Positions 4,849 through 36,251 of a stretch of DNA of 64,000 nt are shown one piece after another. This stretch comes from an uncultured Collinsella sp. GTDB lineage: Bacteria > Actinomycetota > Coriobacteriia > Coriobacteriales > Coriobacteriaceae. The stretch lies in contig CAKUGY010000003.1 of assembly GCA_934654835.1 (NCBI GenBank), forward strand, positions 115,416 to 179,415, read 5' to 3'. Under the pieces are notes generated by a model. It did not search any database and was not told the DNA's origin. It saw nothing but the letters and a program-made list of their open reading frames with translations. The first letter of the stretch is position 1. Each line of letters begins with the position of its first letter. The position numbers and the translations under genes are program-made.

Positions 4849-6318
4849 GGTCCGTCGCTGCAAGTCCCGATGTTACTCCTTCTTGAGGCCGCGCTTCTCG
4901 ACTATCTCGTCCACTATCTCCCTGGCGCGCCGCCCGAGCGCGCGGCGCCTCCCCTCCGTCGGGGCCGGCCTGCCCGCGGGCTCGGCGAAGCCCTCGGCGG
5001 CCGAGGCCTCGGAGAACACGCGCTGCTGGGACCACTGCCCCTCGGTCTCCATGAGGCTCGCGCACGTCAGGCGCAGCATCGACTCCCTCGAGGGGAAGGA
5101 CTGCACGACCCTGTAGCGGCGCTTGATCTCGCGGTTGGCGCGTTCCTGGACGTTGTTGGTGCGGAGCTTGGCCCAGTGCGCCCTGGGGAAGGCCGTGAAC
5201 GCCAGCGCGGAGTCCTCGGCCTGCTCGAAGACCTCGCCGGCCCTGGCGGACACCGACGCCACCCAGGGCGCCGCCTCGGCCCACACGCAGCGCGCGAGGT
5301 CGGGGTCGTCCTGGTAGACCGCGGCGTGCACGAGGTCCCTGACGGCCGCCTTGGAGTCCTCGGGCCTGCCCGAGCAGGCGCTCTGGAGGTTGCGCTGCAG
5401 GTGCGTCACGCAGCGCTGCCAGGCGCAGCCCTGGAACAGGCGCGAGACGGCGGCCACGAGCCCGGCGTGGCTGTCGGAGACCACGAGGCGGACGCCGGCC
5501 AGCCCGCGCTCGCGCAGCCCGCCGAGGAATGCCGCCCAGGAGTCCTCGCTCTCGGTGTCGACCACGTCGCAGCCCAGGAAGTGCTTGCGCCCGTCGGCGC
5601 CCAGCCCGATCGCGGTCACGACGCCCTGCGAGACGACCGACGAGCCGACCCTGCAGCTCATGTAGGTGGCGTCGAGCCACAGGTAGCAGCACGGCGTGCC
5701 CGACAGGTCGCGGCGGCGGAACTCCGCCACCTCGGCGTCGAGCTCGGAGCAGAGTCTCGAGACCTCCGAGCTCGACAGCGAGGATATGCCCAGCCTGGAC
5801 GCCACGCGCTCGACCTTGCGGGTGGACACGCCGCACGCGTACATCTCCTGCACGATGGCGGCCACCGAGGTGTCGACGCGCGACCATCGCGCGAGCATGC
5901 CCTCGGGGTAGTAGGTGCCGTGCCTGAGCTTGGGTATCTCGAGCTCCACGTCGCCAACGGCGGTCTTGAGCGACCTGGGGCGGTAGCCGTTGCGGCTGTT
6001 CTCCCTGCCGTCGCTGCGCTCGTTGCGGCTCGCGCCGCACATCTGCTGGGCCTCGGAGTCCATCAGCGCGTTCATCACGCCGCCCAGCACCCTGCACGCG
6101 AACTCGCGCGCGTCGCCGCACTCCTGCCAAAGCCTCGCCGCCTCGAGGGCCTCGTCGCGGCCGAGGCGCAGTACACTCTCTTCTTGGGGCATCGCCTTTC
6201 CTTCCATTCGTCACCTTCATTACTCCAACGACGAATTCTAGGCGGTGTCCCCTCCCTTTCAAGAAAGGGAAGAGGCGGGGCATGCCCCGCCTCTTACACC
6301 ACATCTCTGCGCGCTACC
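4814..6318 (-). mobile_element. IS256-family insertion sequence, 1505 bp, apparently intact
   Basis: Imperfect terminal inverted repeats: 4814-4840 GTCGCGCGCGCAGACGTGGTGTAAGAG, and the reverse complement of 6291-6318 GGTAGCGCGCAGAGATGTGGTGTAAGAG. They are flanked by the 9-bp direct repeat CCGAGCGCG (4805-4813 and 6319-6327). The element holds a single transposase ORF and a perfect palindrome GAGGCGGGGCATGCCCCGCCTC (6272-6293) just inside the right end. Confidence 0.85.
4873..6207 (-). CDS. IS256-family (mutator-type) transposase
   Basis: 444 aa with IS256/MULE transposase hallmarks: NGYRPRSLKTAVGDVELEIPKLR, VQEMYACGVSTRKVE, YLWLDATYMSCR, VVSDSHAGLVAAV, CAWQRCVTHLQRN, NNVQERANREIKRR. Confidence 0.9.
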   Translation of the reverse strand: MEGKAMPQEESVLRLGRDEALEAARLWQECGDAREFACRVLGGVMNALMDSEAQQMCGASRNERSDGRENSRNGYRPRSLKTAVGDVELEIPKLRHGTYYPEGMLARWSRVDTSVAAIVQEMYACGVSTRKVERVASRLGISSLSSSEVSRLCSELDAEVAEFRRRDLSGTPCCYLWLDATYMSCRVGSSVVSQGVVTAIGLGADGRKHFLGCDVVDTESEDSWAAFLGGLRERGLAGVRLVVSDSHAGLVAAVSRLFQGCAWQRCVTHLQRNLQSACSGRPEDSKAAVRDLVHAAVYQDDPDLARCVWAEAAPWVASVSARAGEVFEQAEDSALAFTAFPRAHWAKLRTNNVQERANREIKRRYRVVQSFPSRESMLRLTCASLMETEGQWSQQRVFSEASAAEGFAEPAGRPAPTEGRRRALGRRAREIVDEIVEKRGLKKE

Positions 6319-6371
6319 CCGAGCGCGCATCGAAATAGGCGTTTGGAGGCTGTTTGGGGGCTGGTTCTATG

Positions 6372-6609
6372 CCCCGTGGTCAAAAAATGCCAAATATGAG
6401 TACTGTTGCCTTGTTGGTTACATATCTTTGAGACTGATTTGACTCCCTAACGATATCGAATATCGTTATGGAGTCTCTTTTATTGGACTCATGTGGAATT
6501 ACTTCACTCATCTTTTGGACAAGTGGGGATTTTTAGCGCCCTGTCCGGTGGAATTTGCTGCTACTAAATTGGTGACAGTACTCATATTTGGCATTTTTTG
6601 CACACGGGG
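6372..6609. repeat. MITE-like element: AT-rich 168-bp core bounded by about 35-bp inverted repeats
   Basis: Left arm 6372-6406 is CCCCGTGGTCAAAAAATGCCAAATATGAGTACTGT. The right arm 6575-6609 is its reverse complement with 2 mismatches. There is an internal hairpin GACTCCCTAACGATA/TATCGTTATGGAGTC (6441-6475). No convincing ORF. Confidence 0.6.
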
Positions 6610-6704
6610 GTCTCGAGGGGGTCCCGAGGGGCCGCGGTTTCGCCCTTTTTGCGTCGAAGCGATACACTGTTACCGTTTGATTTCTTCGCTCAAGGAGGAT
6701 GCGC

Positions 6705-8228
6705 ATGCCGTGCACAACGATTTTGGTTGGTAAGAACGCGAGCTACGACGGGTCGACGCTGGTTGCCCGCAACGAGGACTCGTCCAACGGGGTGTTTGAG
6801 CCCAAGCGCATGCGCGTGGTGCATCCCGACGAGCAGCCGCGCGTCTATACGAGCGTTCTGAGCCATCTGACGATCGATCTGCCCGATAACCCCATGCGTT
6901 ACACGAGCGTCCCCGACGTTGTCCCGGGCCACGGCATCTGGGCCGAGGCCGGATTCAACGAGCTCAACGTGGGCATGTCCGCAACCGAGACGCTCACCAC
7001 CAACGAGCGCGTCCGCGGTGCCGACCCGCTCGTCGACTACGTGCCCGCCAAGGGCAACGAGGGCGAGGACGGCTATGTTCCGGCACAGCCCGGTGGTCTG
7101 GGCGAGGAGGACATGGTGACCCTGGTCTTGCCGTACGCCAAGTCCGCCCGCGACGGCGTGCGCATCTTGGGTGACCTGCTCGAGCGCTATGGCACCTACG
7201 AGAACAACGGCATCGCCTTTAGCGACGTGGATGAGATCTGGTGGCTCGAGACCATTGGCGGCCACCACTGGATTGCCAAGCGCGTGCCCGATGACGCCTA
7301 TGTGACCATGCCCAACCAGCTGGGTATCGATAGCTTTGACCTGGACGACGCCGAGGGCGCCCAAGCCGACCACATGTGCTCCGCCGACCTGCGCTCCTGG
7401 ATGGCCGAGTGGCATCTGGATCTGACGCTGGGCGTCGAGGGTGACGGCCCCGCTGCGGTCTTTAACCCGCGCGAGGCCTTTGGCTCGCACAGCGACAGCG
7501 ATCACGTCTACAACACGCCGCGCGCCTGGTACATGCAGCGCTGCCTCAACCCCAGCGACGTGTGGGACGGCCCCGACGCCGACTTTACGCCCGAGAGCGA
7601 TGACATCCCCTGGAGCCGCGTGCCCGAGCGCAAGGTGACCATCGAGGTCATTAAGTACGTGCTCTCCAGTCACTACCAGGGCACGGAGTACGACTGCTAC
7701 GGCAGCAAGGGCACGCCGGCCACGCGCGGCGCCTATCGTCCCATCGGCATCAACCGCAACAGCCAGCTCGCCGTGTTGCAGCTTCGCCCCTATGCGCAGC
7801 CGGCCTATCGCGCCGTGCAGTGGATGGCATTTGGCTCCAATTCGTTTAACGCGCTGGTCCCGCTGTATGCCAACGTCGAGACCATGCCCGAGTACTACGC
7901 TGACACGCAGGCTCGCGTGACCTCCGAGAACTTCTACTGGGCGAATCGCCTGATTGGCGCCCTGGCCGATGTCCGCTTCCATGAGTGCGGCCGCGCGGTG
8001 GAGGACTACCAGGAGAAGGTCGGTGGCATGGGCCACAAGCAGCTCCACGATGTTGACGCCGCCGTTGCCGCCCTGCCCGAGGCCGAGGTTTCCGCCGAGC
8101 TCGCGCGCGCCAACGAGGCCTTCGCCGAGCTCGTGCGCGTGGAGACCGATGCCCTGTTGGGCAAGGTGCTCTACACCACGAGCTGCGCCATGAAGAACTC
8201 CTTCGCGATGAACGATAACGTCAGGTAA
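6705..8228 (+). CDS. C69 family dipeptidase
   Basis: The N-terminus MPCTTILVGKNASYDGSTLVARNEDS (Cys right after Met) is characteristic of peptidase C69. RBS AGGAGG lies 6 nt upstream of the ATG at 6705. An alternative ATG is at 6699. Confidence 0.85.
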   Translation: MPCTTILVGKNASYDGSTLVARNEDSSNGVFEPKRMRVVHPDEQPRVYTSVLSHLTIDLPDNPMRYTSVPDVVPGHGIWAEAGFNELNVGMSATETLTTNERVRGADPLVDYVPAKGNEGEDGYVPAQPGGLGEEDMVTLVLPYAKSARDGVRILGDLLERYGTYENNGIAFSDVDEIWWLETIGGHHWIAKRVPDDAYVTMPNQLGIDSFDLDDAEGAQADHMCSADLRSWMAEWHLDLTLGVEGDGPAAVFNPREAFGSHSDSDHVYNTPRAWYMQRCLNPSDVWDGPDADFTPESDDIPWSRVPERKVTIEVIKYVLSSHYQGTEYDCYGSKGTPATRGAYRPIGINRNSQLAVLQLRPYAQPAYRAVQWMAFGSNSFNALVPLYANVETMPEYYADTQARVTSENFYWANRLIGALADVRFHECGRAVEDYQEKVGGMGHKQLHDVDAAVAALPEAEVSAELARANEAFAELVRVETDALLGKVLYTTSCAMKNSFAMNDNVR

Positions 8229-8801: not shown

Positions 8802-10565
8802 ATGGCAGATCCCACCACCGATTACAACAATCAAGATCCCTTGGGTGACGAGACGGCGGTTGTCGATGAGGTTGAGGCCGCCGTCTCGGGCGCTCGCAAG
8901 AAGCCGCGCGCTGTCGATATGGTGCCCGAGGAGCCCGACGCGATGGCGCCGGACGAGGAATACCAGCTCACGCCGGCGGGTCGTCGTGAGCGCATTGGGC
9001 AGATCGTTCGCCTGATCAAAAAGTATCGCGTGTGGGATAACCTCACGCCGGTGCGCCTGCGTCGTCTGCTCGAAGAGCTCGGCCCCATGTTCGTCAAGAT
9101 GGGGCAGATTCTGGCCAACCGGTCCGAGATTCTGCCGCAGCGGTTTTGCGACGAGCTGCGTCGCCTGCGCTCCGACGTAGAGCCGGTGCCGTATGAGGTG
9201 GTGCTCCGCTGTCTGGAAGAGGAGTACGGCCAGCGCTTGGGGCAGATGTTCGACGCGATCGACCCCAACCCGCTCGGTAGCGCGTCGCTCGCGCAGGTAC
9301 ACCGTGCCCGCCTGGTGACCGGCGAGGACGTGGCCGTTAAGGTGCAGCGCCCCGGTGCGCAGCAGGTGATGGCTCAGGACATCGACATCATCCGTTCGGT
9401 GGTGCGCATCGTTTCCAAGTTCGTCAACACCGACCAGTTTGTGGACCTGCATGGCGTGGTCGAAGAGCTGTGGACCTCGTTTCGCGAGGAGACCAACTTT
9501 TTGGCCGAGGCCAAAAACCTCAACGATTTCTATGACTTCCATAAAAGCGTGCATGGCGTGTCGTGTCCCAAATCCTACCTGGACCTTTGCACCGAGCACG
9601 TGGTGGTCATGGACTACATCGAAGGCATCTCCATTGCCGATCCCGAGCGCCTGGTGGCTGAGGGCTATGACCTGGAAAAGATCGGCTCGGCGATTGTCGA
9701 GGACTACTCGACGCAGGTGCTCGACGACGGCTTTTTCCATGCCGACCCGCATGCGGGAAACATCATCCTCAAGGACGGCATTGTCTACTTTATCGACCTG
9801 GGCATGGTCGGGCGCATGTCGAGTCACGACCGCGGTATCGTCAAGGATATGATTTTCGCCGTGGCCGAGGGCGACGTGCCCAAGCTCAAGGATTCGCTCA
9901 TGCGCTTTGCCGTGACGCGCGGCGACTCGGCCGAGCTTGACCATTCGGCCTTTTTGTCCGACTTGGACTTTATCGTTGCCGACTTTGCGGGTCTTGATCT
10001 TAAGGACCTGGATATCGGCGAGTTTTTGACCTCGCTGCTAAACCTGGCGCGCAAAAACGACGTTGAGCTGCCGAGTGTGGTGACGATGTTCGCCCGTGGC
10101 ATGGTGACGCTCGAGGGCCTGCTGACCGAGTACATGCCCAACGTCAACATGATTCAGATCATCCAGACGCACATCAAAAACGAGAAGAGCACTTACGCGC
10201 GTATGCGCGACATGAGCCGTGATTTTGCGGCGAGTAGCTACCGAGCGGCAAAGGGTTCGCTCGAAGCGGCCGAGTACCTGGGGCTGGCGTCGCGCATGCT
10301 CACGCGCGGTCAGCTCAAACTGAACCTGCAGCTTATGAGTAGCGACAAGGCGCTGCGTCAGATAGGCGGCATCGTCGACCGCATGTCGATGGCCATCGTC
10401 ATCGCCGGCCTGTTTATCGGCTCGTCGGTGGTCTATTACGCGCGCATCGAGCCGGTTGTGTTTGGTATTCCGGTCATCGGCCTTTTTGGCTACGTGAGCG
10501 CGCTGGTGCTGGCGCTCATGCTGGGTCGCGAGATCTGGCGCAACAGCCACGGCGGCAAGCATTAA
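8802..10565 (+). CDS. ABC1/UbiB (AarF) family atypical kinase with C-terminal transmembrane helices
   Basis: Motifs FVKMGQILANRSEILPQRFCDELRRLRSDV, GSASLAQVHRARL, VAVKVQRPG, FFHADPHAGNI. Two hydrophobic helices near the C-terminus. Confidence 0.85.
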   Translation: MADPTTDYNNQDPLGDETAVVDEVEAAVSGARKKPRAVDMVPEEPDAMAPDEEYQLTPAGRRERIGQIVRLIKKYRVWDNLTPVRLRRLLEELGPMFVKMGQILANRSEILPQRFCDELRRLRSDVEPVPYEVVLRCLEEEYGQRLGQMFDAIDPNPLGSASLAQVHRARLVTGEDVAVKVQRPGAQQVMAQDIDIIRSVVRIVSKFVNTDQFVDLHGVVEELWTSFREETNFLAEAKNLNDFYDFHKSVHGVSCPKSYLDLCTEHVVVMDYIEGISIADPERLVAEGYDLEKIGSAIVEDYSTQVLDDGFFHADPHAGNIILKDGIVYFIDLGMVGRMSSHDRGIVKDMIFAVAEGDVPKLKDSLMRFAVTRGDSAELDHSAFLSDLDFIVADFAGLDLKDLDIGEFLTSLLNLARKNDVELPSVVTMFARGMVTLEGLLTEYMPNVNMIQIIQTHIKNEKSTYARMRDMSRDFAASSYRAAKGSLEAAEYLGLASRMLTRGQLKLNLQLMSSDKALRQIGGIVDRMSMAIVIAGLFIGSSVVYYARIEPVVFGIPVIGLFGYVSALVLALMLGREIWRNSHGGKH

Positions 10566-10715
10566 TGATTCTTTGGGGACGGAGGAAGACGGATCATTTT
10601 GCATAGGCCTCCTTCCTCATCCTTTCCTATCTCAAACCATAGCTTTTACCTTGGGCTTCGCCTGTGTGCGGGGCCCTTTTGCGTGCTACCATGATGACGG
10701 TAATAATCGATGGCC

Positions 10716-10890
10716 TAGATGGTGGTGCGGAGACGCACGAATGCGCGGTTTTCCTGCGCGTTTGGGAGAATCGGGGTGCAATTCCCCGGCTGTACCAGTA
10801 ACCGTAATTCCTCTTGGCCCGGGATGGTCGCGTCGCAGATCGGACGGCGCGCCCGGGTCGTTAAGGTTAAGTCGGATCGCCTCCCATCTT
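10716..10890 (+). promoter_or_regulatory. Cobalamin (B12) riboswitch aptamer, candidate
   Basis: The core TTGGGAGAATCGGGGTGCAATTCCCCGGCTGTACCAGTAACCGTAA (10761-10806) aligns with the conserved AGGGAA..GGTGcgAAtcCC..GCTG.C..CAgc.GTAA core of the E. coli btuB leader. There is a B12-box-like AAGTCGGATCGCCTCCC (10869-10885), a closing helix AGATGG (10717-10722) / CCATCT (10884-10889), and two small hairpins (10724-10738, 10742-10760) 5' of the core. Confidence 0.7.
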
Positions 10891-11032
10891 GCACGCGGCC
10901 GCGGCGCATGCCGCCGGTACGCGTTGGGCTCTGGAGGGAAGGGGGACCCCGATGGGGGTACTCGAGCGCAATGTGCGCGATGACGTGGGGCAGGCGCTGG
11001 GCGATGCTCCAAGTGCAGACAGTAGGAGACAA

Positions 11033-14000
11033 ATGGATATGTTTGAGGACGAGTGCCAGCGCGCCTCGTGGCGTCGCCATGGAGCGATTGCCCGCGGCGT
11101 AGCCAAGCGCGGCCTGGTGGCGTTCCTGGCTTTTGCCATGGCGTTTGGCACGACGCCTGCCCAGATGTGGGCCGACGGCGCCGAGGGCATTGCCGAGGCT
11201 GTGGCTGCTGCGACGGCTGGCGAGGGTTCGTCTGCTGCAGATGGTAGCACGGCCGATGCTGGTGCAGTTGGCGCTGCTGCTGATACCGCTGCTGGCCAGG
11301 ATGCATCAGCGAGCGCTGCGAACAGTGATGACGCCACTGCAAGCGACGCGATTTCCGCCGAGGGCCCTGCCGCAACGATTTCAGCTTCGGAGCAGGGAGA
11401 CGGGAATGCCGCCGTCGTCGCTTCTGCCACGACGCTCTCGGATGACGCCAAGGTCTATATCCAGGACACCAAGGATAAGGACAACTCGTATTCCACGAAG
11501 TCCGGCGCGCTCAAGGCAGGCGACACGCTTTGGGCCAATATGTACGATGAGGTCGAGACCGAGGACGCTTGGGGCGATTTCACTACCGAAACTCAGTCTG
11601 TCGCCAATCCGGGCACTTGGACCTACACTTGGCTCGCCGGCACGGTTAAGTCGAGCAACAACGTCGCTGACTATACCGAGGTCGTAGGTAACGAGCAGTC
11701 GCTTGCCGTTACCGATGCGATGGTGGGCAAATACTTCATCTGCAAGGTAACGGCGGACGGCAAGGATTACTATGGTCCGTCCGTCTCTTACGGCTCGGGC
11801 ATCAACGCCAATTACATCCCCGGTCCCGTGCTGGGCGCCGGCCAGGCGAGCCTCTACTCCGTCAAGCTGAGCAATTCTTCGCCGGCCGTTGGTGACGAGG
11901 TCACCGCGACGGCATACACTGCGTACAACACGCCTGCTTCGAGCGACGCCAAGGTGACCTACACCTGGTACGAGTCGACCAACAAATACTCCGGCTGGAC
12001 CGAGATTAAGGGCGCGACAATCGCCACCCTCACGGTAACCGACACCCTTGAGGGCAAGTATCTCAAGGTCAAGGCAAACGCCGGGGTAAACGACGTTGAG
12101 GCCACGACAAGCGACGCCGTGCTCAAGGCCGGCGCGGTCAAGCTCGCGGGTGTCGAGCTCTCCGCGCCTTCCACTGAAATCGGCGCGACCGTTACGGCCA
12201 AGGCATACACCGGCTCGAGCTCCAGCCCCTCCTACGTCGACAACTCCAAGGTCACCTACACCTGGAAGAAGTACAAGGGCACCTCGGCGCCCAGCAGCTC
12301 CACGAAGTGGGAGATCATCGAGGGCGAGTCCGGCCCGACGCTTACGGTGGCCGACGACCTCGAGGGCTACTACGTTAGCGTCTCCGCCAATGCGGGCGCG
12401 AACGATGTCTCGTTCGGCAGCTGGTCGACCGGCTATGGCGTGGGCCCCTTCAAGCAGGCCGGCGCCGTGGACATCTACTCCGCCATCCTGGCCCCTGCGG
12501 GTTCGACCTCGGGAACCTACGTCTATACCGTTGAAGACACAGTCCAGGCTTTTGCTAAAGAGAAGGGCGCCTCCGATTACATCGATGCGTCCAAGCTGAA
12601 CTATCAGTGGCAGGTTTCGGACAAGAAGAACGGTACCTACACCGACATCGAGGGTGCGACGTCGAGCACCCTCGAGCTCGCGGCTTACGAGGGCAAGTCG
12701 GTTCGTTGCCACATCACCTCAAAGATCGGCAATAGCGAGTACAACACCAAGGGCACGAGCCTTATCGGTGCTGCCGGCTCCATCAGCATCACGAAGGTCA
12801 CGCTTGACCGCACCGGCGAGGCGACGGTCGGCCAGAAGATTACCGCCTCCGCGAAGTCGGGCTCCGACGACGTGACCTCGAGCCCCAAGGTTACCTGGTC
12901 CTGGTACTACGGGGACTCCCCGAGTACCTGCGACACGAAGATCGAGGGCGCGGACACCAACTCCTTAACGCCCGACGCGGCGCTGGCGAACAGGTACGTC
13001 CAAGCGCACGCCAACGGCGGCTTCGGCGACGAGCAATCGAGCGCGCTGCCCGTTGTGGAGGCCGGTGCGGTTGATCTCTACGGTGTGACGGTTACGGGTG
13101 CTCTGGCATCCGGACAGGTCGCTGCGGGTAAGGTCCTGACCGCGAAGGCGACTAAGGGCAACTCCTACACCAACGTTTCCGCGACGGATACGGTCCACTA
13201 TCAGTGGCAGTACTCCAACGACAAGAGCTCCTACGACAGCCACTTCGTCAACATCCCCGACGCGGCCGACTCCGCTACGTATACGCCGACCAACGACATG
13301 GTGGGCAAGTACATCCGCGTAATTGCCACGAGCAAAAACTCGGTCAAGAGCACCGAAAAGAAGAGCACCTACGGCGGCACGCAGTCCGTCGACCCCGTTG
13401 GTCCCGTGGCGCTCGCCGGCCAGTACAAGCTCAAGTCCGTCGCTCCCAACGAGGCGTCTTCGACGACGCTTTCTGTGGGCACTACGCTCACTCCGCGCGT
13501 GAAGATCCCCGGCTCCTCGAGCTGGTCCGATTCCGATCTGCCCGAGGACGCTAAGCTCACGCTCGCTTGGTATGCCAAGGGCGAGGGCGATTCGGACTGG
13601 GTCGAAGTCACCGAAGGCATCGACACCGAGACCGGCGCGCTGACGCTCAACGATTCCCTTGTTGGCAAACGCATCAAGCTCACTGCTTCCGCCCTCGATA
13701 ACACGGTTGAGTGGGTTTCCTCCGATAGCGTTACCGCGGCGGGGGAGTACAGCCTGCTGCGTGTGATCACCACCCCGCAGATCAACAGCGAGTCGACCCA
13801 TCTGGTTTCGGGCGATAGCGTTAAGGCGACGGTGCAGGCCAAGCGTGCCGATGGTTCGACCACCAACGGCATCGACGTGACCGCTCAGACGACGGTTGCT
13901 TGGTATGCGGCTGACGATGCGAAGGCTGCGGCGGCCGACTGGACGCTGCTGTCCGACATGTCGGGCGTCGAGGCAACGGTCTCGGCCTCCGCTGATGGCA

Positions 14001-17000
14001 AGTATCTGAAGGCTGTCGCTACGAGTGGCAGCTCGACGGTCGAGCTCATCTCCGCTAACAAGGTTATCGCCGCAGGCTCGCTCGAGGCTGCAGTCCAAAA
14101 GCTCACCGATGCCAACAAGCAGATTGTTGTTGATTACAACGCCAAGGGCGGCAACGTCAACGATGTCCTGAAGGCGCAGCTTGCCGAGCTTGGCTTTGAT
14201 GGCGTTGACGTTAAGGTCGTCGGGGACGGTGTTGCCTTCAAGGCCGAGGATGCCAAGGCTACGGTCGCCATCTCCGATGCCCAGGACAAGACCAACGGCG
14301 ATGTGACATTCTTCTACATCGATCCCAACGACTACACCGGCTACAACATCGACGGCCTGCGCAGTGCGGATGTGGTGTTTGAGCTGTCGCGTGGCGATGA
14401 GCTCGAATACTACCAGCCCAACAAGACGGTGCAGGTTGCTTGGGACGAGGCTCGTGTGCAGCAGATGCTCGACGATGCTGCCGAGCAGGTTGCCATCGGC
14501 TATGCTTCGGGCGATTCGGCCGAGTCCGTCACGTCCAACCTCACGCTGCCGTATCGCGCGGGTTCCAAGAGCAAGTTCGAGGTCAGCTGGAAGAGCTCCG
14601 ACGGCGATGTTATTTGGCCGTCCGGTTATGGCTGGAGTGACTACACCGGCAAGGTTACGCGCGCCTCGAGCGATCGCGCCGTTACGCTGACCGCGACCGT
14701 TTCGTTTGTGAGCGGCGGCCCGTCTGACGTTAAGGGCACGCACGACTTCACGGTGACCGTCAAGGGCGATCCCGAGAAGGTCGCTGCCGACAAGAAGGCG
14801 CTGCAGGAAAAGGTCGATGCGACCTTCACCTACGACAACATCAAGTACTCCGGCACCGACACGGTTGCCGACAAGGACGGCCTGACCGCCGACCTGCAGA
14901 TGCCGCGCACGAGTACGCTCAATATCGACGGCAAGTACTACAAGGTTGAGTACTCTGCAAGCACCGACGACATCACGTTCAACGGTTATAAGGGCACGGT
15001 CTACCAGCCGCTGCCCGGCGCTAAGGCTGCGAACACCAAGATCACCCTCACGGTGACCGACAAGTCCAACGCCGAAGTCACGGCCAGCAAGACCCTCGAC
15101 TTTGCCATTGCTCCGCAGAACCAGAAAGAGCTCGATGCCGAGCTGTCTCTTATGGAGAAGGCAAAGGCCGGCTACGCTGCTGCCATCCTGAATGGCCAGG
15201 ATGCCAATGCCGTTTCGGCCGACATGCACGCGTTCCAGAAGGCCTATCTTGATGCCGATGGCAACCTGGCCTGGAGCTACGACAAGACGACGACCGATTC
15301 GACGTCCCTCGGCATTGTTCCGGTTGACCTGCCTGGCTATGACGCGATGTCTGGACAGGACTGGCGCCTGTTTAAGTCGAGCAACAGCTCTATTGTTTCT
15401 GCCGAGAACCTCAAGGTCACGCAGCCCGAGTACAACACGAAAGTTGTCGTTTCCTCGCGTCTGACGAGCGAGAAGTATGCTCGCTATGCCGAGCGTTATC
15501 CCGATAACGCCACGTATGCCAAGCTCGCTAATCAGGATGTTTCGGCAAAGATCACGGTTCTGGGCACGAGCGGTCAAAACAGCCCGGAGGTGACGGCGAC
15601 GTGCTCCGTCATCGGCATCGATGCCAAGGGCAAGCAGCAAACATGGGCTGCCGCGTCGCAGTACACGCTTAAGAATGGCGCGACTGCGGCAGATCTTTCC
15701 GAGGAGCTCTTTAAGCAGGCCGGCCTCAAGGCCGACTACGACCCCAACGGCTCTTGGGGCTGGGTGCTCAACTCCATTACATCGCCTTTCGATGCTGACC
15801 GCACCCTTGCGTATGACTACGCTACGGGTGCCTACTGGCAACTGTTCATCAACGGCGTCGCGGCGTCGGTTGGTGCCGGCGGCTACACCCTCGAGGCGGG
15901 CGACTCTATCGTCTGGTGTTACTCGAAGTACGGAGACCCTGCACCCACCGACCAGCTTTCAGTAAGTTGCACCGTTATCGGACAGGACGCCTCGGGCGCT
16001 CAGCAAACGTGGGCGCAGCCTACGACTGCGCTGGTGGAAGAGGGCGCGACCGCTGCCGATCTTTCCGAGCGAATCTTTAAGCAGGCTGGCATTGGCGTCG
16101 ACGCCCAGACCGGCTCGTATGGTTGGTTCCTCAATTCGCTGACTTCTCCGTTCGATAAGAACGTGAAGCTTTCGACCGTACAGGTCGACGAAAGCACTTG
16201 GAAATCTTGGCAGTTCTTCGTCAACGGCAAGATGGCCAACGTCGGCGCAGGCAATTACACACTCAAGGCCGGCGACGAGGTCACCTGGGTCTATGGCTCT
16301 GACGGCACCATGCCTGGTCAGGTCGCCGTTTCGATGGAGATCATCGGCAAAAAGGATGATAAGGCTCAGCGTTGGACCGATCCTTCGACGCAGGTGTTCG
16401 TTGAGGGCACGACGATTAAGGACGCCTCTGCCGCCTACTTCGATGCTGTTGGCATCAAGTCCGAGATGTACGACCAGCAGGGCTATTGGGGCGTTCACAG
16501 CCTTGTCTCTCCGCTTGACGATACCAAGCTGGCTGGCGCCTGGTCGTTCTTTGTAAATGGTGTCCCTGCAAATCAAATCGATAGTGACTATGTACTCAAG
16601 TCGGGTGACTCGATCGTCTGGGCTTTTGCTGCCGGCGACACGGTTCCCAATCCTGATGAAGTCGTCGTGGATCCGAGCGCTCCGCGTCCGACCGATTGGA
16701 AGTCCGACTGGGATGGCAAGTCCAACGCGGCAGTCGAGAACGTGTCCACGCCTACGGGTGCGCTGGCAAGCTCTTGGACGTTCGATTGGAAGGCCTACTC
16801 GGGTGCCACATACCCCAATGCGAGCGAGCCTATCGTCGTGAACTGCAACGTGTATCTCGCCGTCAACAAGCGTTTGCTTAAGATTGATGCCGAGTCGGGC
16901 AAGGTGCTTGCCGAGTCGAATCTTAAGACTGCGATTGGCTACACAACGCGTCCGATTTATACGAACGGCTTAATCATCGTCCCGCTCGACGGCGGTGCGG

Positions 17001-18577
17001 TCCAGGCTCTGACGGCCGACACGCTCACGACGGTTTGGGTTACCGACCCTGTGAGCAAAACTGCTCAGTCGAATTCTCAGCTGACGGTCGATGGTAACTA
17101 TCTCTACGTTGGCACCGTTGATGTCGACTTTGGAACGAGTACGTACAATAACGGTCATTTGACGCGTATTAACATCCTGACCGGCGCTGTTTCTTGGCAG
17201 CATGTTAATGCTGATGAGGGCTATTATTGGACGGGCGCCACGGTTGGCAGCGACTACATTCTGGTTCCCACCAGCTCCGGTACCGTCGAGATGCTCAGCA
17301 AGTCTTCGGGCGCTGTGCTTGGAAGCGTCTCAGTTGGGGCTATCGTCAACTCCTCCTGCGTGCTCTCCACTGACGGCAGCCACGCTTACCTGATTTCGCG
17401 CGACGGCAAGCTGCACGTGCTGGCGATTTCTGACGGCAGTTCGCGTGATGCGGATGCCGCCTCACGTCTTACCGAGGAGCGTGTGATTGACCTTGGCCTT
17501 ACCGGCTGCGCGTGCATACCTACGCTGTATGACGGCAAGCTTATCGTTGGCGGCGAGGTTTCTGGTGGATCTGCGCTGGCCATTGTCGACCTGGAGAACG
17601 ACTTTGCTTCGACACTAATCTCGTCTGCCGATGGTTCCGCGCTTCCCGCCGGCGGTATTAAGGGCGCTCCGTTGGTGAGTGCTCAGGCAGACGGCACGTA
17701 TGTGTACTTTACGGTTAACTACGGTGAGACCTCCGACTACGTGAATTGCACGACGGGCGGTGGCGTCTATCGCTACAAGCTGGGCGATGCCGAGGCGTCT
17801 GGCGTGTTTAGCGCGACGGGTCACAATAACTATTGCGACTCGCCGGTCGCCTGCGATGCCAAGGGCAACCTGTACTACATCAACGACTCCGGCACGCTGT
17901 TTAAGCTGAACGCTGGCGTCAAGGTTTCGTTTAACGCTGGCGAAGGCTCCAAGGTCGATTTCCAGACCACGGCTGCCAACGGCTCTGTTGCTAAGCCTGC
18001 CGATCCGACGCGTGAGGGTTATACCTTTGGCGGCTGGTACACCGATGAGGCTTGTACGGAGGCATATGACTTTAGCACGCCGGTGGCGGCTGATATGACG
18101 CTGTATGCCAAGTGGGTCAAGAAGGCTGCTGACAATAACGGCGGTTCTGGCAACAATGGTGGCTCCAACGGCAATGGCGGTTCTGGCAATGCCGGCACCG
18201 GCGCTGGTTCTGGTAGCGGCACGAATGGCCAGCAGACTGGCGGTGCCGTTTCGCCCGGTCAGAAGCCGGTGTCTACTACGACCACTACGACTGAGGCCAA
18301 GGACGACAAGAATTCCAAGAAGGATTCCGACAAGTCCGACAAGAAGGACGGCAAGAAGTCTGACAAGAAGGACGAGAAGTCCAGCAAGTCCGGCTCCAAG
18401 TCCGACAAGGGCTCCGCTTCCACGACCACTGCTAAGAAGTCCGCTGAGGCCTCTGAGCAGGAGTCTGGATTCAACCCGCTCGCCATCGTCGGCATTGCAG
18501 CTGGTTTGATCGGCCTTGCCCTCATCGCCGTTTTTGTGCTGACCAAGCGCGGCAAGGGTGACGGCGATGTCCGATAA
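11033..18577 (+). CDS. Giant secreted, membrane-anchored surface protein: about 8 Ig-like repeats, three tandem transcobalamin-like (DUF4430-type) modules, PQQ/BamB-like beta-propeller, Listeria-Bacteroides repeat, K/D/S-rich spacer, C-terminal TM anchor
   Basis: Signal-like KRGLVAFLAFAMAFGTTPAQMWA. Repeats have the motif (K)VTY.W...(G)...L.V.D...GKY.KV.A (about 11600-14040). The three modules each end W.(L/F)F(I/V)NG....Y.L..GD.(I/V).W (about 15590-16660). Propeller-like repeats span about 16700-17900. VKVSFNAGEGS...REGYTFGGWYTDEACTEAYDF...TLYAKW lies at 17910-18115. The C-terminal helix is LAIVGIAAGLIGLALIAVFVLTKRGK. The start at 11033 has AGGAG 4 nt upstream; alternative starts are 10952 and 10889. 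Confidence 0.85.
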   Translation: MDMFEDECQRASWRRHGAIARGVAKRGLVAFLAFAMAFGTTPAQMWADGAEGIAEAVAAATAGEGSSAADGSTADAGAVGAAADTAAGQDASASAANSDDATASDAISAEGPAATISASEQGDGNAAVVASATTLSDDAKVYIQDTKDKDNSYSTKSGALKAGDTLWANMYDEVETEDAWGDFTTETQSVANPGTWTYTWLAGTVKSSNNVADYTEVVGNEQSLAVTDAMVGKYFICKVTADGKDYYGPSVSYGSGINANYIPGPVLGAGQASLYSVKLSNSSPAVGDEVTATAYTAYNTPASSDAKVTYTWYESTNKYSGWTEIKGATIATLTVTDTLEGKYLKVKANAGVNDVEATTSDAVLKAGAVKLAGVELSAPSTEIGATVTAKAYTGSSSSPSYVDNSKVTYTWKKYKGTSAPSSSTKWEIIEGESGPTLTVADDLEGYYVSVSANAGANDVSFGSWSTGYGVGPFKQAGAVDIYSAILAPAGSTSGTYVYTVEDTVQAFAKEKGASDYIDASKLNYQWQVSDKKNGTYTDIEGATSSTLELAAYEGKSVRCHITSKIGNSEYNTKGTSLIGAAGSISITKVTLDRTGEATVGQKITASAKSGSDDVTSSPKVTWSWYYGDSPSTCDTKIEGADTNSLTPDAALANRYVQAHANGGFGDEQSSALPVVEAGAVDLYGVTVTGALASGQVAAGKVLTAKATKGNSYTNVSATDTVHYQWQYSNDKSSYDSHFVNIPDAADSATYTPTNDMVGKYIRVIATSKNSVKSTEKKSTYGGTQSVDPVGPVALAGQYKLKSVAPNEASSTTLSVGTTLTPRVKIPGSSSWSDSDLPEDAKLTLAWYAKGEGDSDWVEVTEGIDTETGALTLNDSLVGKRIKLTASALDNTVEWVSSDSVTAAGEYSLLRVITTPQINSESTHLVSGDSVKATVQAKRADGSTTNGIDVTAQTTVAWYAADDAKAAAADWTLLSDMSGVEATVSASADGKYLKAVATSGSSTVELISANKVIAAGSLEAAVQKLTDANKQIVVDYNAKGGNVNDVLKAQLAELGFDGVDVKVVGDGVAFKAEDAKATVAISDAQDKTNGDVTFFYIDPNDYTGYNIDGLRSADVVFELSRGDELEYYQPNKTVQVAWDEARVQQMLDDAAEQVAIGYASGDSAESVTSNLTLPYRAGSKSKFEVSWKSSDGDVIWPSGYGWSDYTGKVTRASSDRAVTLTATVSFVSGGPSDVKGTHDFTVTVKGDPEKVAADKKALQEKVDATFTYDNIKYSGTDTVADKDGLTADLQMPRTSTLNIDGKYYKVEYSASTDDITFNGYKGTVYQPLPGAKAANTKITLTVTDKSNAEVTASKTLDFAIAPQNQKELDAELSLMEKAKAGYAAAILNGQDANAVSADMHAFQKAYLDADGNLAWSYDKTTTDSTSLGIVPVDLPGYDAMSGQDWRLFKSSNSSIVSAENLKVTQPEYNTKVVVSSRLTSEKYARYAERYPDNATYAKLANQDVSAKITVLGTSGQNSPEVTATCSVIGIDAKGKQQTWAAASQYTLKNGATAADLSEELFKQAGLKADYDPNGSWGWVLNSITSPFDADRTLAYDYATGAYWQLFINGVAASVGAGGYTLEAGDSIVWCYSKYGDPAPTDQLSVSCTVIGQDASGAQQTWAQPTTALVEEGATAADLSERIFKQAGIGVDAQTGSYGWFLNSLTSPFDKNVKLSTVQVDESTWKSWQFFVNGKMANVGAGNYTLKAGDEVTWVYGSDGTMPGQVAVSMEIIGKKDDKAQRWTDPSTQVFVEGTTIKDASAAYFDAVGIKSEMYDQQGYWGVHSLVSPLDDTKLAGAWSFFVNGVPANQIDSDYVLKSGDSIVWAFAAGDTVPNPDEVVVDPSAPRPTDWKSDWDGKSNAAVENVSTPTGALASSWTFDWKAYSGATYPNASEPIVVNCNVYLAVNKRLLKIDAESGKVLAESNLKTAIGYTTRPIYTNGLIIVPLDGGAVQALTADTLTTVWVTDPVSKTAQSNSQLTVDGNYLYVGTVDVDFGTSTYNNGHLTRINILTGAVSWQHVNADEGYYWTGATVGSDYILVPTSSGTVEMLSKSSGAVLGSVSVGAIVNSSCVLSTDGSHAYLISRDGKLHVLAISDGSSRDADAASRLTEERVIDLGLTGCACIPTLYDGKLIVGGEVSGGSALAIVDLENDFASTLISSADGSALPAGGIKGAPLVSAQADGTYVYFTVNYGETSDYVNCTTGGGVYRYKLGDAEASGVFSATGHNNYCDSPVACDAKGNLYYINDSGTLFKLNAGVKVSFNAGEGSKVDFQTTAANGSVAKPADPTREGYTFGGWYTDEACTEAYDFSTPVAADMTLYAKWVKKAADNNGGSGNNGGSNGNGGSGNAGTGAGSGSGTNGQQTGGAVSPGQKPVSTTTTTTEAKDDKNSKKDSDKSDKKDGKKSDKKDEKSSKSGSKSDKGSASTTTAKKSAEASEQESGFNPLAIVGIAAGLIGLALIAVFVLTKRGKGDGDVR

Positions 18578-19472
18578 GCCTAAGGACGACGGCAAGCAGC
18601 CCGACTCCTCGTTCATCCAGCTTGATGATGCAAAGCAAAAGGGCGCCGCTTCGGCGGCGTCCGCCCCTCGGCGCAAGGTGCTGCTCGGCGTCCTGACTGC
18701 CGCATGCATCGCGCTGATCGTTGTTTCGCTGGGCTTTGTCCATCCTTCCGCCAGTGGGGCCTGGTCCATCGACTGGATTGTCCGGACCGTGACGGGGGAG
18801 AGCATCGTTACCAAGGACGCCGGGGGAACTGGCGCGACCGTCACTTCGGTCAAAGCCGGGTCCAAGGATTCCAAATCCTCGGATGATGCGAAGGACGAAT
18901 CCAAAGATTCGGATAAATCTGATTCCAAGGACGATTCCGAATCTTCGGACAAGGACTCGGACAAAGACTCGAAAGAGAAAAAGTCCGAAGGCAAGGGCGG
19001 TAAGAAGTCTGGCAACAAATCTAAGACCCAGAATGGCGGATCCGTCGATCAGTCCAGCTCTTCTGACGGCGCATCTTCGGGCGGCGGATCAACGACGGGT
19101 GGTGGGGCTACTTCTAACGGCGGCAGCGCCTCTGCGGGCAGCCAGAGCGGCTCGCAGCAGCCTGGCTACGTTACGGTGACGGTGTCGGTCACATCGAGTG
19201 CTGTGGGCAATCCTGTCTCGTCTGGCGGCACGTTCACCTTTAACGAGGGCGCCACGGTCTACGATGCCCTATGCGCGCTGGGCCTTTCCGTTAACGCTCA
19301 TGGCTCGTCGTACGGCACCTACGTTGCCGCCATCGGCGGTCTAGCCGAGAAGGAGCACGGCAGTACGAGCGGCTGGATGTACTCCGTCAACGGCGTAACG
19401 CCCAACACGGCTTGCAGCAACTACGTTCTTTCCAACGGAGACAACGTAGTCTGGTATTACGTAACGGGCTAG
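18567..19472 (+). CDS. Membrane-anchored protein with K/D/S- and G/S-rich spacer and C-terminal transcobalamin-like (DUF4430-type) domain
   Basis: N-terminal TM helix VLLGVLTAACIALIVVSLGFV. The C-terminal YVTVTVSV...GATVYDALCALGLSV...GSSYGTYVAAIGGLAEKEHGSTSGWMYSVNG....YVLSNGDNVVWYYV matches the DUF4430 signature. The gene overlaps the end of the upstream gene by 11 nt. Confidence 0.8.
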   Translation: MSDKPKDDGKQPDSSFIQLDDAKQKGAASAASAPRRKVLLGVLTAACIALIVVSLGFVHPSASGAWSIDWIVRTVTGESIVTKDAGGTGATVTSVKAGSKDSKSSDDAKDESKDSDKSDSKDDSESSDKDSDKDSKEKKSEGKGGKKSGNKSKTQNGGSVDQSSSSDGASSGGGSTTGGGATSNGGSASAGSQSGSQQPGYVTVTVSVTSSAVGNPVSSGGTFTFNEGATVYDALCALGLSVNAHGSSYGTYVAAIGGLAEKEHGSTSGWMYSVNGVTPNTACSNYVLSNGDNVVWYYVTG

Positions 19473-19496
19473 ATGCATCGACATAGCATGCCAATC

Positions 19497-19532
19497 GGGC
19501 GGTTCGGAGAGTATCCGAACCGCCCGCTTTTA
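19497..19532 (+). terminator. Rho-independent terminator after the DUF4430 gene pair
   Basis: GGGCGGTTCGGA/TCCGAACCGCCC hairpin followed by GCTTTTA. Confidence 0.75.
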
Positions 19533-19668: not shown

Positions 19669-19694
19669 ATACATTCAAGCAAATGTCGAATCGA

Positions 19695-20102
19695 CTACGA
19701 CTGCGCGCCCTCGAGGAAGAAGCGGCGGCTAAAGTAGTTGTACCAGGTGACCAAGAACGTGGCGATGGCCTTCATGGCCTGGTAGCCGATGCTCAAAAAC
19801 GTGACGCCCACAAACATGTACAGGTCGTTGAGGCCCAGGCCAATCACCGACAGGATGGTGAAGATCGTGAACTCGCGCTTGCGGCTCATGCCCTCGCGGT
19901 GGTCGAACACGTACTTCATACTGAGCCAGTAATTGACCACAACGGACGTGATAAACGAGATCGTGGTGCTCATCAAAAAGTCAAAGTGGAACAGCTCGAC
20001 GAGCGCAATAAGCATGCCCCAGTCGATGCCAAAGGAGATAAGTCCCACGACAGCGAACTTGAGGAACTGCTTAGTATGAGGTTGTGCCAGTGCCTTGCGC
20101 AC
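19695..20102 (-). CDS. GtrA-like family membrane protein
   Basis: 135 aa with four predicted TM segments. FLKFAVVGLISFGIDWGMLIALVELF and NYWLSMKYVFDHREGMSRKREF are typical of the GtrA family. Confidence 0.8.
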   Translation of the reverse strand: MRKALAQPHTKQFLKFAVVGLISFGIDWGMLIALVELFHFDFLMSTTISFITSVVVNYWLSMKYVFDHREGMSRKREFTIFTILSVIGLGLNDLYMFVGVTFLSIGYQAMKAIATFLVTWYNYFSRRFFLEGAQS

Positions 20103-20252
20103 GCAATCACATCCAATGCGTTGATGAATCGAGCAGAGGATACTTTAGAGCTTTTGCATGGGAAACGTAAGGGCTTTGCCAAGAACTATACGAACTCGTC
20201 AAATTTTCAAGAGGCAATCCGCAAACGTTGGAAATTTGCCCGTAAACGAATA

Positions 20253-20298
20253 GGGCCCGCGAACGACGCCGCACCCAGTGCACGTCGTTCGCGGGCCC
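20253..20298 (-). terminator. Strong hairpin between the two GtrA-like genes (probable terminator)
   Basis: Perfect 16-bp stem GGGCCCGCGAACGACG / CGTCGTTCGCGGGCCC just downstream of the stop at 20322. On the minus strand the following tract is only moderately T-rich. Confidence 0.5.
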
Positions 20299-20321
20299 TG
20301 CAATACAGCGAGAAAGCCGAG

Positions 20322-20717
20322 CTACTTGGTCTCGTCGCCCTCCAGGAAAATCTTGCGGGTCACAAAGTTGTAGACCATGACGAGCGCGGTGGCGCAAATC
20401 TTGGCGATATTGGCCTCGAGTCCCAGGCCGGCGTTGAGCGCCAACACGATGCCGTCGTTAAGCACCAGGCCGATCACAGACAGCACGACAAAGATGACAA
20501 ACTCGCGACGGCGGCTCATGCCCTCCTTGTGCGCGAACACGTACTTCATGCTCGCGACGTAGTTAAAGATGAGCGAGACGATAAAGCCGCTGGTGTTGGC
20601 GATCAAGATGTTGAGGCCCAGACCGTAGTGGAGCAGATTCATGATGCCGAAGTCGATGACCGTGGCAATGACGCCGACGACGCCAAACTTCATGATCTGC
20701 GCAAGGAGCTTTTGCAT
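20322..20717 (-). CDS. GtrA-like family membrane protein (paralog)
   Basis: MQKLLAQIMKFGVVGVIATVIDFGIMNLL... and NYVASMKYVFAHKEGMSRRREF are parallel to the neighbouring GtrA-like gene. The ORF track allows a longer start at 20780. Confidence 0.8.
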   Translation of the reverse strand: MQKLLAQIMKFGVVGVIATVIDFGIMNLLHYGLGLNILIANTSGFIVSLIFNYVASMKYVFAHKEGMSRRREFVIFVVLSVIGLVLNDGIVLALNAGLGLEANIAKICATALVMVYNFVTRKIFLEGDETK

Positions 20718-20795
20718 GGTACCTGCCTTTAGGTGGCGCCGGGGCGCCGTGGGGATGACAAACTCAGCAAGTTTAGCCAATCCCCGTGGGCGGGG

Positions 20796-29474: not shown

Positions 29475-29535
29475 TCTTTTGGGATGATTTTTCTGGGACG
29501 GGGATTAAAAAATCATTGTGGGAGAGGAGATGTCG

Positions 29536-30175: not shown

Positions 30176-31392
<1,217 letters not shown>

Positions 31393-31393
<1 letters not shown>

Positions 31394-35111: not shown

Positions 35112-36251
<1,140 letters not shown>

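Follow-up and report, generated by a model that had tools for sequence, protein, structure and literature searches.

In Bacteroides, BtuG and BtuH are surface lipoproteins that bind vitamin B12 (cobalamin) and act as accessories of the TonB-dependent transporter BtuB. To our knowledge, extracellular capture of B12 by Gram-positive gut bacteria is largely unknown, and the characterised surface binders, BtuG and BtuH, are all from Bacteroides. For another cofactor, the Isd system of Staphylococcus aureus provides a relay in which NEAT-domain surface receptors pass haem across the wall to an ABC-type importer. In Lactobacillus delbrueckii, the energy-coupling factor (ECF) transporter ECF-CbrT (PDB entry 6FNP) has been shown experimentally to transport vitamin B12 and cobinamide (PMC5997447), and the bacterial domain DUF4430 has been described as the C-terminal domain of transcobalamin-family proteins (PMC4350170). 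Here, we discuss a two-gene operon of an uncultured Collinsella sp., located in a stretch of 64,000 nucleotides (nt) that was analysed as a whole and is referred to as the window. In this operon, a leader with an aptamer of the cobalamin riboswitch type (positions 10717-10889, + strand, from the P1 5′ strand to the P1 3′ strand) precedes the gene for a giant surface protein (11033-18577, +, in an open reading frame [ORF] spanning 10889-18577), which overlaps the gene for a small protein of 301 amino acids (aa) (18567-19472, +). We suggest, with a probability of roughly 70%, that this operon is controlled by a cobalamin riboswitch and supplies the components that capture corrinoids outside the cytoplasm for a CbrT-type (ECF) B12 uptake system.

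Both proteins carry modules of the DUF4430 family (PF14478). The giant protein matches the Pfam model with 104.2 bits over three stretches and the small protein with 72 bits (cut-off 23.8), in agreement with a reading of the DNA made earlier from its letters alone (the sequence-only reading), which had placed three modules in the giant protein and one in the overlapping gene. The three tandem modules, identified by Pfam, AlphaFold2 (AF2) and Foldseek, cover aa 1520-1869 of the giant protein (15590-15934, 15956-16306 and 16322-16639, +). An AF2 model of module 1, built with an alignment of 52 modules (A4), has a pLDDT of 95.8, compared with 58.5 for the three modules modelled without an alignment. 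The 19 best Foldseek matches in the PDB comprise the beta-domain regions of haptocorrin, intrinsic factor and transcobalamin (among them 4KKI, 2PMV, 3KQ4, 5NP4, and 2BB5) together with 3U7Z, and nothing else; they have E ~1e-5, query-normalised TM-scores up to 0.75 and sequence identities of 10-20%. At the sequence level, single-module phmmer searches of the PDB gave nothing, or a DsbA-like match judged spurious. A four-module profile reached the beta domain of transcobalamin-1 at E = 0.02 (its DsbA matches are regarded as chance), and a 52-sequence profile gave a weaker result, E = 0.61. Going by the structural model, the modules carry the transcobalamin/intrinsic-factor beta-domain fold, a likeness that the sequence-only reading had put forward from short motifs and that is now borne out by the AF2 model and by the best 19 Foldseek matches.

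In transcobalamin, the beta domain holds the nucleotide side of the whole cofactor. One of the Foldseek matches, 5NP4, is the isolated human beta domain with cyanocobalamin, and the fold is therefore able to hold B12 without an alpha domain. The DUF4430 family comprises 8,316 clusters at 50% identity, and many of its proteins are longer than 1,000 aa with 2-10 modules. The searchable literature and the PDB yielded no functional study of a bacterial DUF4430 protein and no description of the giant multi-module form; nor was an account of the present system found in that literature. A separate observation concerns one family member, P0367, which consists, over 611 aa, of five DUF4430 modules with a hydrophobic tail at the C-terminus; in composition it resembles a eukaryotic more than a bacterial protein, and it may be an invertebrate multi-module B12 binder.

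On comparative sequence evidence, we conclude that the leader RNA truly belongs to the cobalamin riboswitch clan (Rfam CL00101), although as a divergent member. The motifs that had led the sequence-only reading to a cobalamin riboswitch are all where it placed them: the aptamer core GGGAGAATCGGGGTGCAATTCCCCGGCTGTACCAGTAACCGTAA at 10764-10807, the B12-box-like segment AAGTCGGATCGCCTCCC at 10869-10885 and the closing helix AGATGG/CCATCT (P1) at 10717-10722/10884-10889. The AdoCbl-II model (RF01689) aligns with positions 10764-10854 at 32.9 bits (gathering score 36.5; E = 1.1e-5 in a 901-base search); the RF00174 score on the window leader is below the RF01689 score, and the RF00174 match is hidden by the clan rule. 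Homologous leaders precede orthologous genes in four further lineages: Slackia isoflavoniconvertens (L086 and L090, 30.7 bits), L099 (32.1 bits), L093, where the leader is partly on the contig, and L100. The leader of L100, which precedes a DUF4430 protein of the giant-protein module type, passes the RF01689 gathering score of 36.5 with 40.5 bits, and its pairing is exactly that assigned by hand in the window. At gathering score, no Rfam family was found in three Eggerthellaceae loci. The core features of the clan, i.e., the GGGAA junction, the GGUG..A.UCC hairpin, a CC-containing L5, ACnGUAA and the B12 box, are present in the window, and several consensus positions deviate (e.g., J6/3 AUCG vs AGCG).

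The assigned structure accommodates several insertions. Between P1 and the core lie two peripheral hairpins (GUGCG-GAGA-CGCAC at 10725-10738 and a second at 10740-10762, +), whose pairs show one-sided and compensatory changes among Collinsella leaders (RNAalifold); each related lineage has two hairpins, of differing sequence, at this position. The core (10764-10807, +) consists of the P3 5′ strand, the GGGAGAA junction, the P4 hairpin, the P5 hairpin with the loop L5 ACCA(G), and the P6 5′ strand. It continues into a P6 extension hairpin of ~60 nt (10808-10868, +), which shows compensatory C-G/U-A exchanges at alignment columns 108/145 (UA 32, CG 30) and is not in the compact homologue L100. 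Because of this inserted extension, the Rfam model closes the structure on the wrong segment, and it is mainly owing to insertions that the leader falls below the Rfam thresholds. The B12-box-like AAGUCGGAUCGCCUCCC (10869-10885, +) supplies the P6 3′ strand, J6/3, and the P3 3′ strand. An extra hairpin (10892-10925, +), which occurs in Collinsella leaders only, lies between the aptamer and the ribosome-binding region, and it covaries at columns 183/212 (CG 33, UA 29).

Sequence conservation points in the same direction. In 72 of 85 Collinsella loci, the leader shows next to no variation, in contrast to the diverging intergenic DNA that lies further upstream. A set of 65 distinct Collinsella leaders has hardly any changes in the core, and the P6 extension and the downstream hairpin carry compensatory changes; because the core is invariant there, RNAalifold on Collinsella alone picks an alternative P1. 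Minimum-free-energy folding of the leader gave Z-scores of -1.25 and -0.42. A hand-drawn structure was tested on an alignment of hand-cut segments with the variable parts spliced out (A5). Its 21 pairs (P1, P3, P4, P5, and P6) are paired in 98.8% of cells; the test covers five lineages, the structure derives from the same sequences and the Rfam consensus, and the joining of hand-cut segments biases the result towards the assigned structure. Six pairs changed on both sides (two in P1, one in P3, two in P4, and one in P5), P6 being invariant. None of 500 shuffles matched this result, and controls with the structure slid along the alignment had 36-59% of cells paired and 0-1 doubly changed pairs.

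Downstream of the aptamer, the sequence CUGG is followed by a purine-rich ribosome-binding site (RBS), GGAGGGAAGGGGG, and ATG 10952, the presumed regulated start (10931-10954, +). In L099, L100, L093, and Slackia, the element CCCUGGAAG.(A/G)AGG and a start codon lie within ~30 nt of the P1 3′ strand; in Collinsella, the equivalent element, CUCUGGAGGGAAGG ... AUG 10952, is placed after the extra hairpin at 10892-10925. Known cobalamin riboswitches hide the ribosome-binding site by means of an L5-L13 kissing loop. In every lineage, CUGG is complementary to CCAG in L5; we infer a kissing-loop role for it from this pairing, which is conserved rather than covarying. Gene callers use ATG 11033 in the orthologues, with the RBS AGGAGA at 11024-11029, which gives a protein of 2,514 aa (2,541 aa from ATG 10952). 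The giant ORF and ATG 10952 share one reading frame, the 27 codons leading to 11033 are free of stops and frameshifts in 45 of 45 distinct Collinsella versions, and this ATG and its RBS are positional homologues of the starts in Slackia, L099, and L100. Judging from these alignments, the regulated start of the giant gene may be 10952, 81 nt before the annotated 11033.

In Collinsella, no importer adjoins the gene pair, as the sequence-only reading had remarked, and the hand-off partner that it could not see becomes visible by comparison with Eggerthellaceae and Firmicutes operons. In orthologous loci of Slackia isoflavoniconvertens and related contigs (L086, L087, L088, L090, L093, and L094), the order is giant gene, small DUF4430 gene, EcfT-like gene, fused double ECF ATPase gene and S component gene, all co-directional and with gene ends that overlap or abut. 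Since the Slackia riboswitch lies upstream of the giant gene, it is at the head of the whole ECF block. The protein at the EcfT position is a membrane protein of 288 aa (L086 10971-11837; L094 2390-3256), in which an EcfT-type AMRARGY motif is seen in translation. It has no Pfam or NCBIfam match and, judged from its sequence and position, seems to be an EcfT too divergent for current models to recognise. The fused ATPase matches ECF ATPase models, including the cbiO subfamily model at 233 vs 211.8 bits. The S component matches PF12822, and its sole PDB match is chain A of 6FNP (E = 4e-8), the ECF-CbrT structure (PMC5997447). Chain A, with 182 aa, is taken to be CbrT itself by its length and family, the PDB label being just "Membrane protein".

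The same linkage recurs in gut-metagenome Firmicutes (L101-L180). Among 36 DUF4430 loci with full 3-kb flanks, EcfT is encoded directly downstream on the same strand in 29 and the fused ECF ATPase in 28, and in seven the flank extends far enough to include a CbrT-like S component; this is a conserved DUF4430-EcfT-EcfAA'-S operon. In the Firmicutes operon, the T component is assigned to CbiQ by Pfam. RF00174 matches at gathering score occur upstream on the same strand in five of 20 diverse loci (34.7-85.1 bits) and also in L095 and L097. The gene for P0380, a Firmicutes protein with two DUF4430 modules, lies behind an RF00174 match (33.2 vs 31.5 bits) and directly before genes for CbiQ/EcfT and the ATPase. 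These gene arrangements suggest that DUF4430 is a regular extracytoplasmic companion of the cobalamin-type ECF transporter and a member of B12 regulons. CbrS and the [quoted passage not shown] of annotation systems may both be DUF4430 proteins as well. The published cbrT cluster has the order nrdJ-cbrS-cbrT-pduO (PMC5997447). As a side observation, a pemK RNA motif (RF02913, 64.9 bits) lies at 4268-4348 of L138, downstream of a Firmicutes DUF4430 gene without ECF genes, to which it is probably unrelated.

The remainder of the giant protein bears on where its modules are held. The protein was described in the sequence-only reading as secreted, C-terminally anchored and about 2,500 aa long, and this description fits: it has an N-terminal signal peptide and a single C-terminal transmembrane (TM) helix at aa 2483-2504, followed by KRGKGDGDVR. 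About eight N-terminal repeats of ~105 aa (Y.W ... GKY..V) occupy aa 141-1011 (11453-14065, +), and aBig_2 (above the Pfam cut-off) and related segments lie between these repeats and the DUF4430 modules. The modules are followed by a PQQ/BamB-like beta-propeller region (aa 1913-2295; 16769-17917, +), a Flg_new/Listeria-Bacteroides repeat resembling the InlB B-repeat (17918-18124, +; above the Pfam cut-off) and a low-complexity stalk of 118 aa rich in G, S, T, K, and D with the TM anchor at 18479-18544 (18125-18544, +, in all). Of the families that had been expected besides PF14478, Flg_new was thus found, while PQQ_2 has no match in the giant protein of the window and was found in the orthologue of L005. 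The propeller has a sub-threshold Pfam match to Beta-prop_ACSF4 (29.9 vs 133 bits); a phmmer search of all PDB chains gave weak matches to BamB and InlB repeats and no similarity to BtuG. No LPXTG motif precedes the C-terminal hydrophobic segment (C-terminus ...ESGFNPLAIVGIAAGLIGLALIAVFVLTKRGKGDGDVR), and the sequence is read as that of a plain TM anchor, not of a sortase-anchored protein. With its anchor at the C-terminus, the protein has the DUF4430 modules and the propeller close to the wall and membrane, and its repeats point outward.

Among Collinsella strains, the giant proteins range from ~1,060 to 2,560 aa (L001, L005; P0121-P0240). The number of N-terminal repeats varies, and the block from the DUF4430 modules to the anchor, including the propeller, is constant. 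Such variation in repeat number is typical of exposed, possibly adhesive or antigenically variable parts of surface proteins. The small protein is arranged in the opposite direction: a short cytoplasmic N-terminus and a TM helix (18675-18740) are followed by a Ser/Asp/Lys/Gly-rich stalk of ~115 aa (18825-19166) and then by the one DUF4430 module (19167-19469). Its most likely start is ATG 18567 (MSDKPK..., as in the orthologues), so that its gene overlaps the giant gene by 11 nt.

From the observed sequences, domains, fold, RNA covariation and gene linkage, we infer ligand binding by the RNA and by the proteins, an off-switch and a hand-off of the ligand, which together suggest the following model. 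When B12 is ample, the ligand-bound aptamer would dock L5 (CCAG) onto the CUGG beside the RBS and thereby turn translation off. When B12 is scarce, the giant and the small protein would both be made, and their translation is probably coupled because of the 11-nt overlap of the genes. After export, the giant protein would stay fixed in the membrane through the helix at its C-terminus, while the stalk would carry the remainder through the cell wall; the three DUF4430 modules beside the beta-propeller would bind corrinoids, and the strain-variable repeats would lie beyond. The small protein would act as a tethered shuttle, with its single DUF4430 module on a flexible stalk handing the corrinoid to a CbrT-like S component. 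The importer would come from the same operon in Slackia and its relatives and from elsewhere in the genome in Collinsella. The best-supported reading of the giant protein is that of an elaborated multivalent receptor specific to Coriobacteriia. A more far-reaching version of the model is that monoderm gut bacteria possess a riboswitch-repressed B12 relay of transcobalamin-beta-like modules, leading from giant receptor to tethered shuttle to CbrT. In this relay, the giant receptor, with its several modules and its propeller, would capture corrinoids at the cell wall or within it, and might strip them from intrinsic factor or haptocorrin of the host or take them from other microbes. We put the relay forward tentatively and rate its chances at somewhat less than even.

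Several findings weigh against the proposal that the operon serves corrinoid capture for a CbrT-type transporter. With respect to the RNA, no Rfam family, RF00174 included, matches in the window at gathering score, nor does any in four other Collinsella loci, and the covariation test has the limits and the bias given above. With respect to the proteins, the modules are without the alpha domain, which completes the B12 pocket in transcobalamin. 3U7Z, the one bacterial member with a solved structure, is an uncharacterised DUF4430 protein of Ruminococcus gnavus, deposited as a "putative metal binding protein", and no corrinoid-bound bacterial DUF4430 was found in the PDB to April 2026 or in the searchable literature. 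Moreover, the modules of the giant protein sit at its membrane end and not at its tip, a poor fit to a receptor that would "reach out and grab". With respect to the genes, a Pfam survey found no ECF or BtuFCD genes in the 64-kb window, and tblastn with the Slackia T, A, and S proteins found no T or S homologue there, the ATPase query matching only other ABC ATPase genes at 44.6-47.0 kb. Concerning the RNA, the missing RF00174 match is, in formal terms, an outcome that the sequence-only reading had named as refuting it; we consider that the comparative evidence outweighs this and therefore keep the leader in the clan. Of the cobalamin riboswitch proposed in the sequence-only reading, membership of the clan is upheld by the L100 score and the covariation, and an RF00174 match at gathering score in the window is not. 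The broader claim of a B12-repressed, corrinoid-scavenging device at the cell surface finds support in three independent lines: the leader, the predicted fold and the ECF linkage in relatives.

Some of these points would suit proteins that withhold corrinoids at the cell surface from competitors or the host, or keep them there as a reserve, with no specific route onward to an importer in Collinsella. Neither the Collinsella loci examined nor the 64-kb window have importer genes linked to the pair, and a total of four binding modules in each gene pair would point to capacity more than to transfer. Such a role is unlikely, however, given that repression by intracellular B12 is what one expects of an uptake gene, that orthologous pairs are encoded with a full ECF transporter in Eggerthellaceae and that the small-protein type is linked to EcfT in the 29 Firmicutes loci mentioned above. 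A different view would be that the giant protein is mainly an adhesin or surface protein, that its modules bind a metal, another tetrapyrrole or a glycan, and that its link with B12 is regulatory or historical. Most of the protein is indeed made of typical adhesin parts (Ig-like repeats, aBig_2, propeller, and internalin-type repeat), the N-terminal repeats vary among strains, and the deposited description of 3U7Z and the lack of an alpha domain would fit as well. Yet, apart from 3U7Z, the only significant structural relatives of the modules (Foldseek E up to 0.001) are B12 carriers, the gene lies behind an aptamer of the cobalamin clan in four lineages, and it is co-operonic with a CbrT-like transporter in relatives. 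In addition, the two roles are compatible, as adhesion could be a matter of the distal repeats and B12 binding one of the proximal modules. We therefore regard a mainly adhesive role as quite unlikely.

The two remaining alternatives concern the transported substrate and the regulation, and both seem to us highly improbable. The system could import cobalt, nickel or an early corrin precursor, like the CbiMNQO ECF cobalt transporters that are controlled by B12 riboswitches. Cobalt transporters are generally common in B12 regulons, the fused ATPase matches the cbiO subfamily model (233 vs 211.8 bits) and Pfam assigns the Firmicutes T component to CbiQ; CbiQ and CbiO are, however, simply what the families of ECF T and A components are called. 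The matches of the S component are to PF12822 and CbrT (6FNP), and the DUF4430 fold is the one by which transcobalamin holds the whole cofactor at its nucleotide side, both of which argue against cobalt or a precursor. As to regulation, the leader could be a decayed or re-purposed aptamer, with the operon expressed constitutively or under another signal. The scores below gathering in Collinsella and Slackia, the large P6 insertions and the deviations from the consensus, e.g., at J6/3 (AUCG vs AGCG), would be expected from decay. Against this stand the almost invariant core of the 65 leaders, the compensatory changes in the P6 extension and the platform hairpins, the covariation of helices between families and the compact form that passes the gathering score. 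Collectively, the uptake-type regulation, the fold and the gene linkage make all four alternatives less likely than corrinoid capture for a CbrT-type transporter.

The limits of the operon are set by intrinsic terminators. The upstream neighbour is an ABC1/UbiB kinase gene (8802-10565), whose terminator (10653-10676, +) is the 5′ limit of the transcription unit. Downstream of the small gene, a terminator with a 13-bp stem and a T-run (19496-19526, +) closes the operon; as the two terminators bracket the leader, the giant gene and the small gene, the unit is a two-gene operon. Beyond it, on the opposite strand, lie two tandem genes for GtrA-like small membrane proteins (19695-20102 and 20322-20780, -), which have a terminator of their own (19667-19640, - strand), and a gene for a class III fructose-bisphosphatase. 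Other Collinsella contigs have the identical gene order (kinase, leader, giant, small, GtrA-like pair, and fructose-bisphosphatase). An ORF of 349 aa at 19683-20732 (+) was considered as a third operon gene and rejected: it is antisense to the two GtrA-like genes, and the terminator that ends the operon at 19526 also rules it out. The composition of this ORF is odd and highly charged. A domain scan of genome contigs listed at least 80 loci, all from Collinsella, and the nearest named relative of the small protein among the matches listed is a Collinsella DUF4430 protein. The source of the window is placed in the Collinsella aerofaciens group (Coriobacteriia). Protein searches seeded from the window yielded mostly close Collinsella relatives; the wider diversity discussed above comes from a representative search, a distant-orthologue seed and contig look-ups.

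Elsewhere in the window, three queuosine genes are found, encoding QueH, QueA, and Tgt (29518-30111, 30176-31393, and 35112-36251). QueH is the B12-independent epoxyqueuosine reductase and QueG its B12-dependent counterpart; QueH in place of QueG would suit an organism that spares B12. The segment 4001-6400 has the highest G+C content of the window (0.686). Long ORFs on both strands overlap there (4870-6399, +, and 4736-6304, -). The ORF at 4870-6399 (+) has no Pfam match, and it adjoins a Peptidase_C69 gene (6699-8228) that is equal to it in length.

We propose that DUF4430 domains are the missing extracellular binders of CbrT-type ECF transporters, and that Collinsella and Slackia, abundant Coriobacteriia of the gut, have combined multiple copies of them in giant surface proteins. 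If this holds, DUF4430, a family with more than 8,000 sequence clusters, would receive its first function, and a bacterial uptake module would be connected with that half of the vertebrate carriers which binds B12. One more participant would be added to the competition of gut microbes and host for this vitamin. A divergent subgroup of cobalamin riboswitches, overlooked at current Rfam thresholds, would also be defined.

How, then, does the Collinsella operon compare with the systems described at the outset? The closest link is to ECF-CbrT of L. delbrueckii and the CbrT/U/V cobalamin ECF systems predicted in comparative genomics. CbrT is the sole PDB relative of the Slackia-type S component; the Firmicutes DUF4430 genes are equally linked to such transporters. 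Unlike in those operons, no ECF genes adjoin the Collinsella pair. Moreover, ECF-CbrT was studied without an extracellular accessory protein, and the giant multi-module protein has no counterpart there. The vertebrate carriers transcobalamin, intrinsic factor and haptocorrin share with the modules the PF14478 family and the beta-domain fold. However, these carriers have an alpha domain with an alpha6/alpha6 barrel, whereas the modules, as predicted binders, are without it and occur in tandem in a membrane-anchored surface protein. In relation to other cobalamin riboswitches, the window leader shares the core, the B12-box-like segment, P1 and P3-P6, and a CUGG by the RBS that is complementary to L5, and it likewise forms the 5′ leader of a putative corrinoid-uptake operon. 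It differs by the ~60-nt P6 insertion, the two peripheral hairpins and the extra hairpin before the RBS.

The likeness to BtuG and BtuH of Bacteroides is one of function. These, too, are surface corrinoid binders encoded in B12-riboswitch uptake loci, and they pass the vitamin to a membrane transporter. BtuG has a beta-propeller fold, as does a region of the giant protein, with no sequence similarity detected between the two. In contrast to BtuG and BtuH, the proposed binders in Collinsella are transcobalamin-beta-like and belong to a monoderm, which has no outer membrane or TonB step, and their partner would be an ECF transporter. The Isd haem relay of S. aureus offers a further analogy, as it also combines repeated modules in large surface proteins with a membrane-proximal single-module protein. 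Its NEAT fold is unrelated and its anchoring is by LPXTG and sortase, compared with TM helices here, where transfer between the proteins is a proposal. Thus, the cobalamin riboswitch, the transcobalamin-beta fold and the ECF-CbrT transporter are components of known kinds. The sequence-only reading had regarded the whole architecture as new, but a small DUF4430 gene beside a cobalamin-type ECF transporter is widespread, and the DUF4430-ECF pairing has probably been noticed before in comparative genomics. The new element relative to these systems is the giant multi-module protein.

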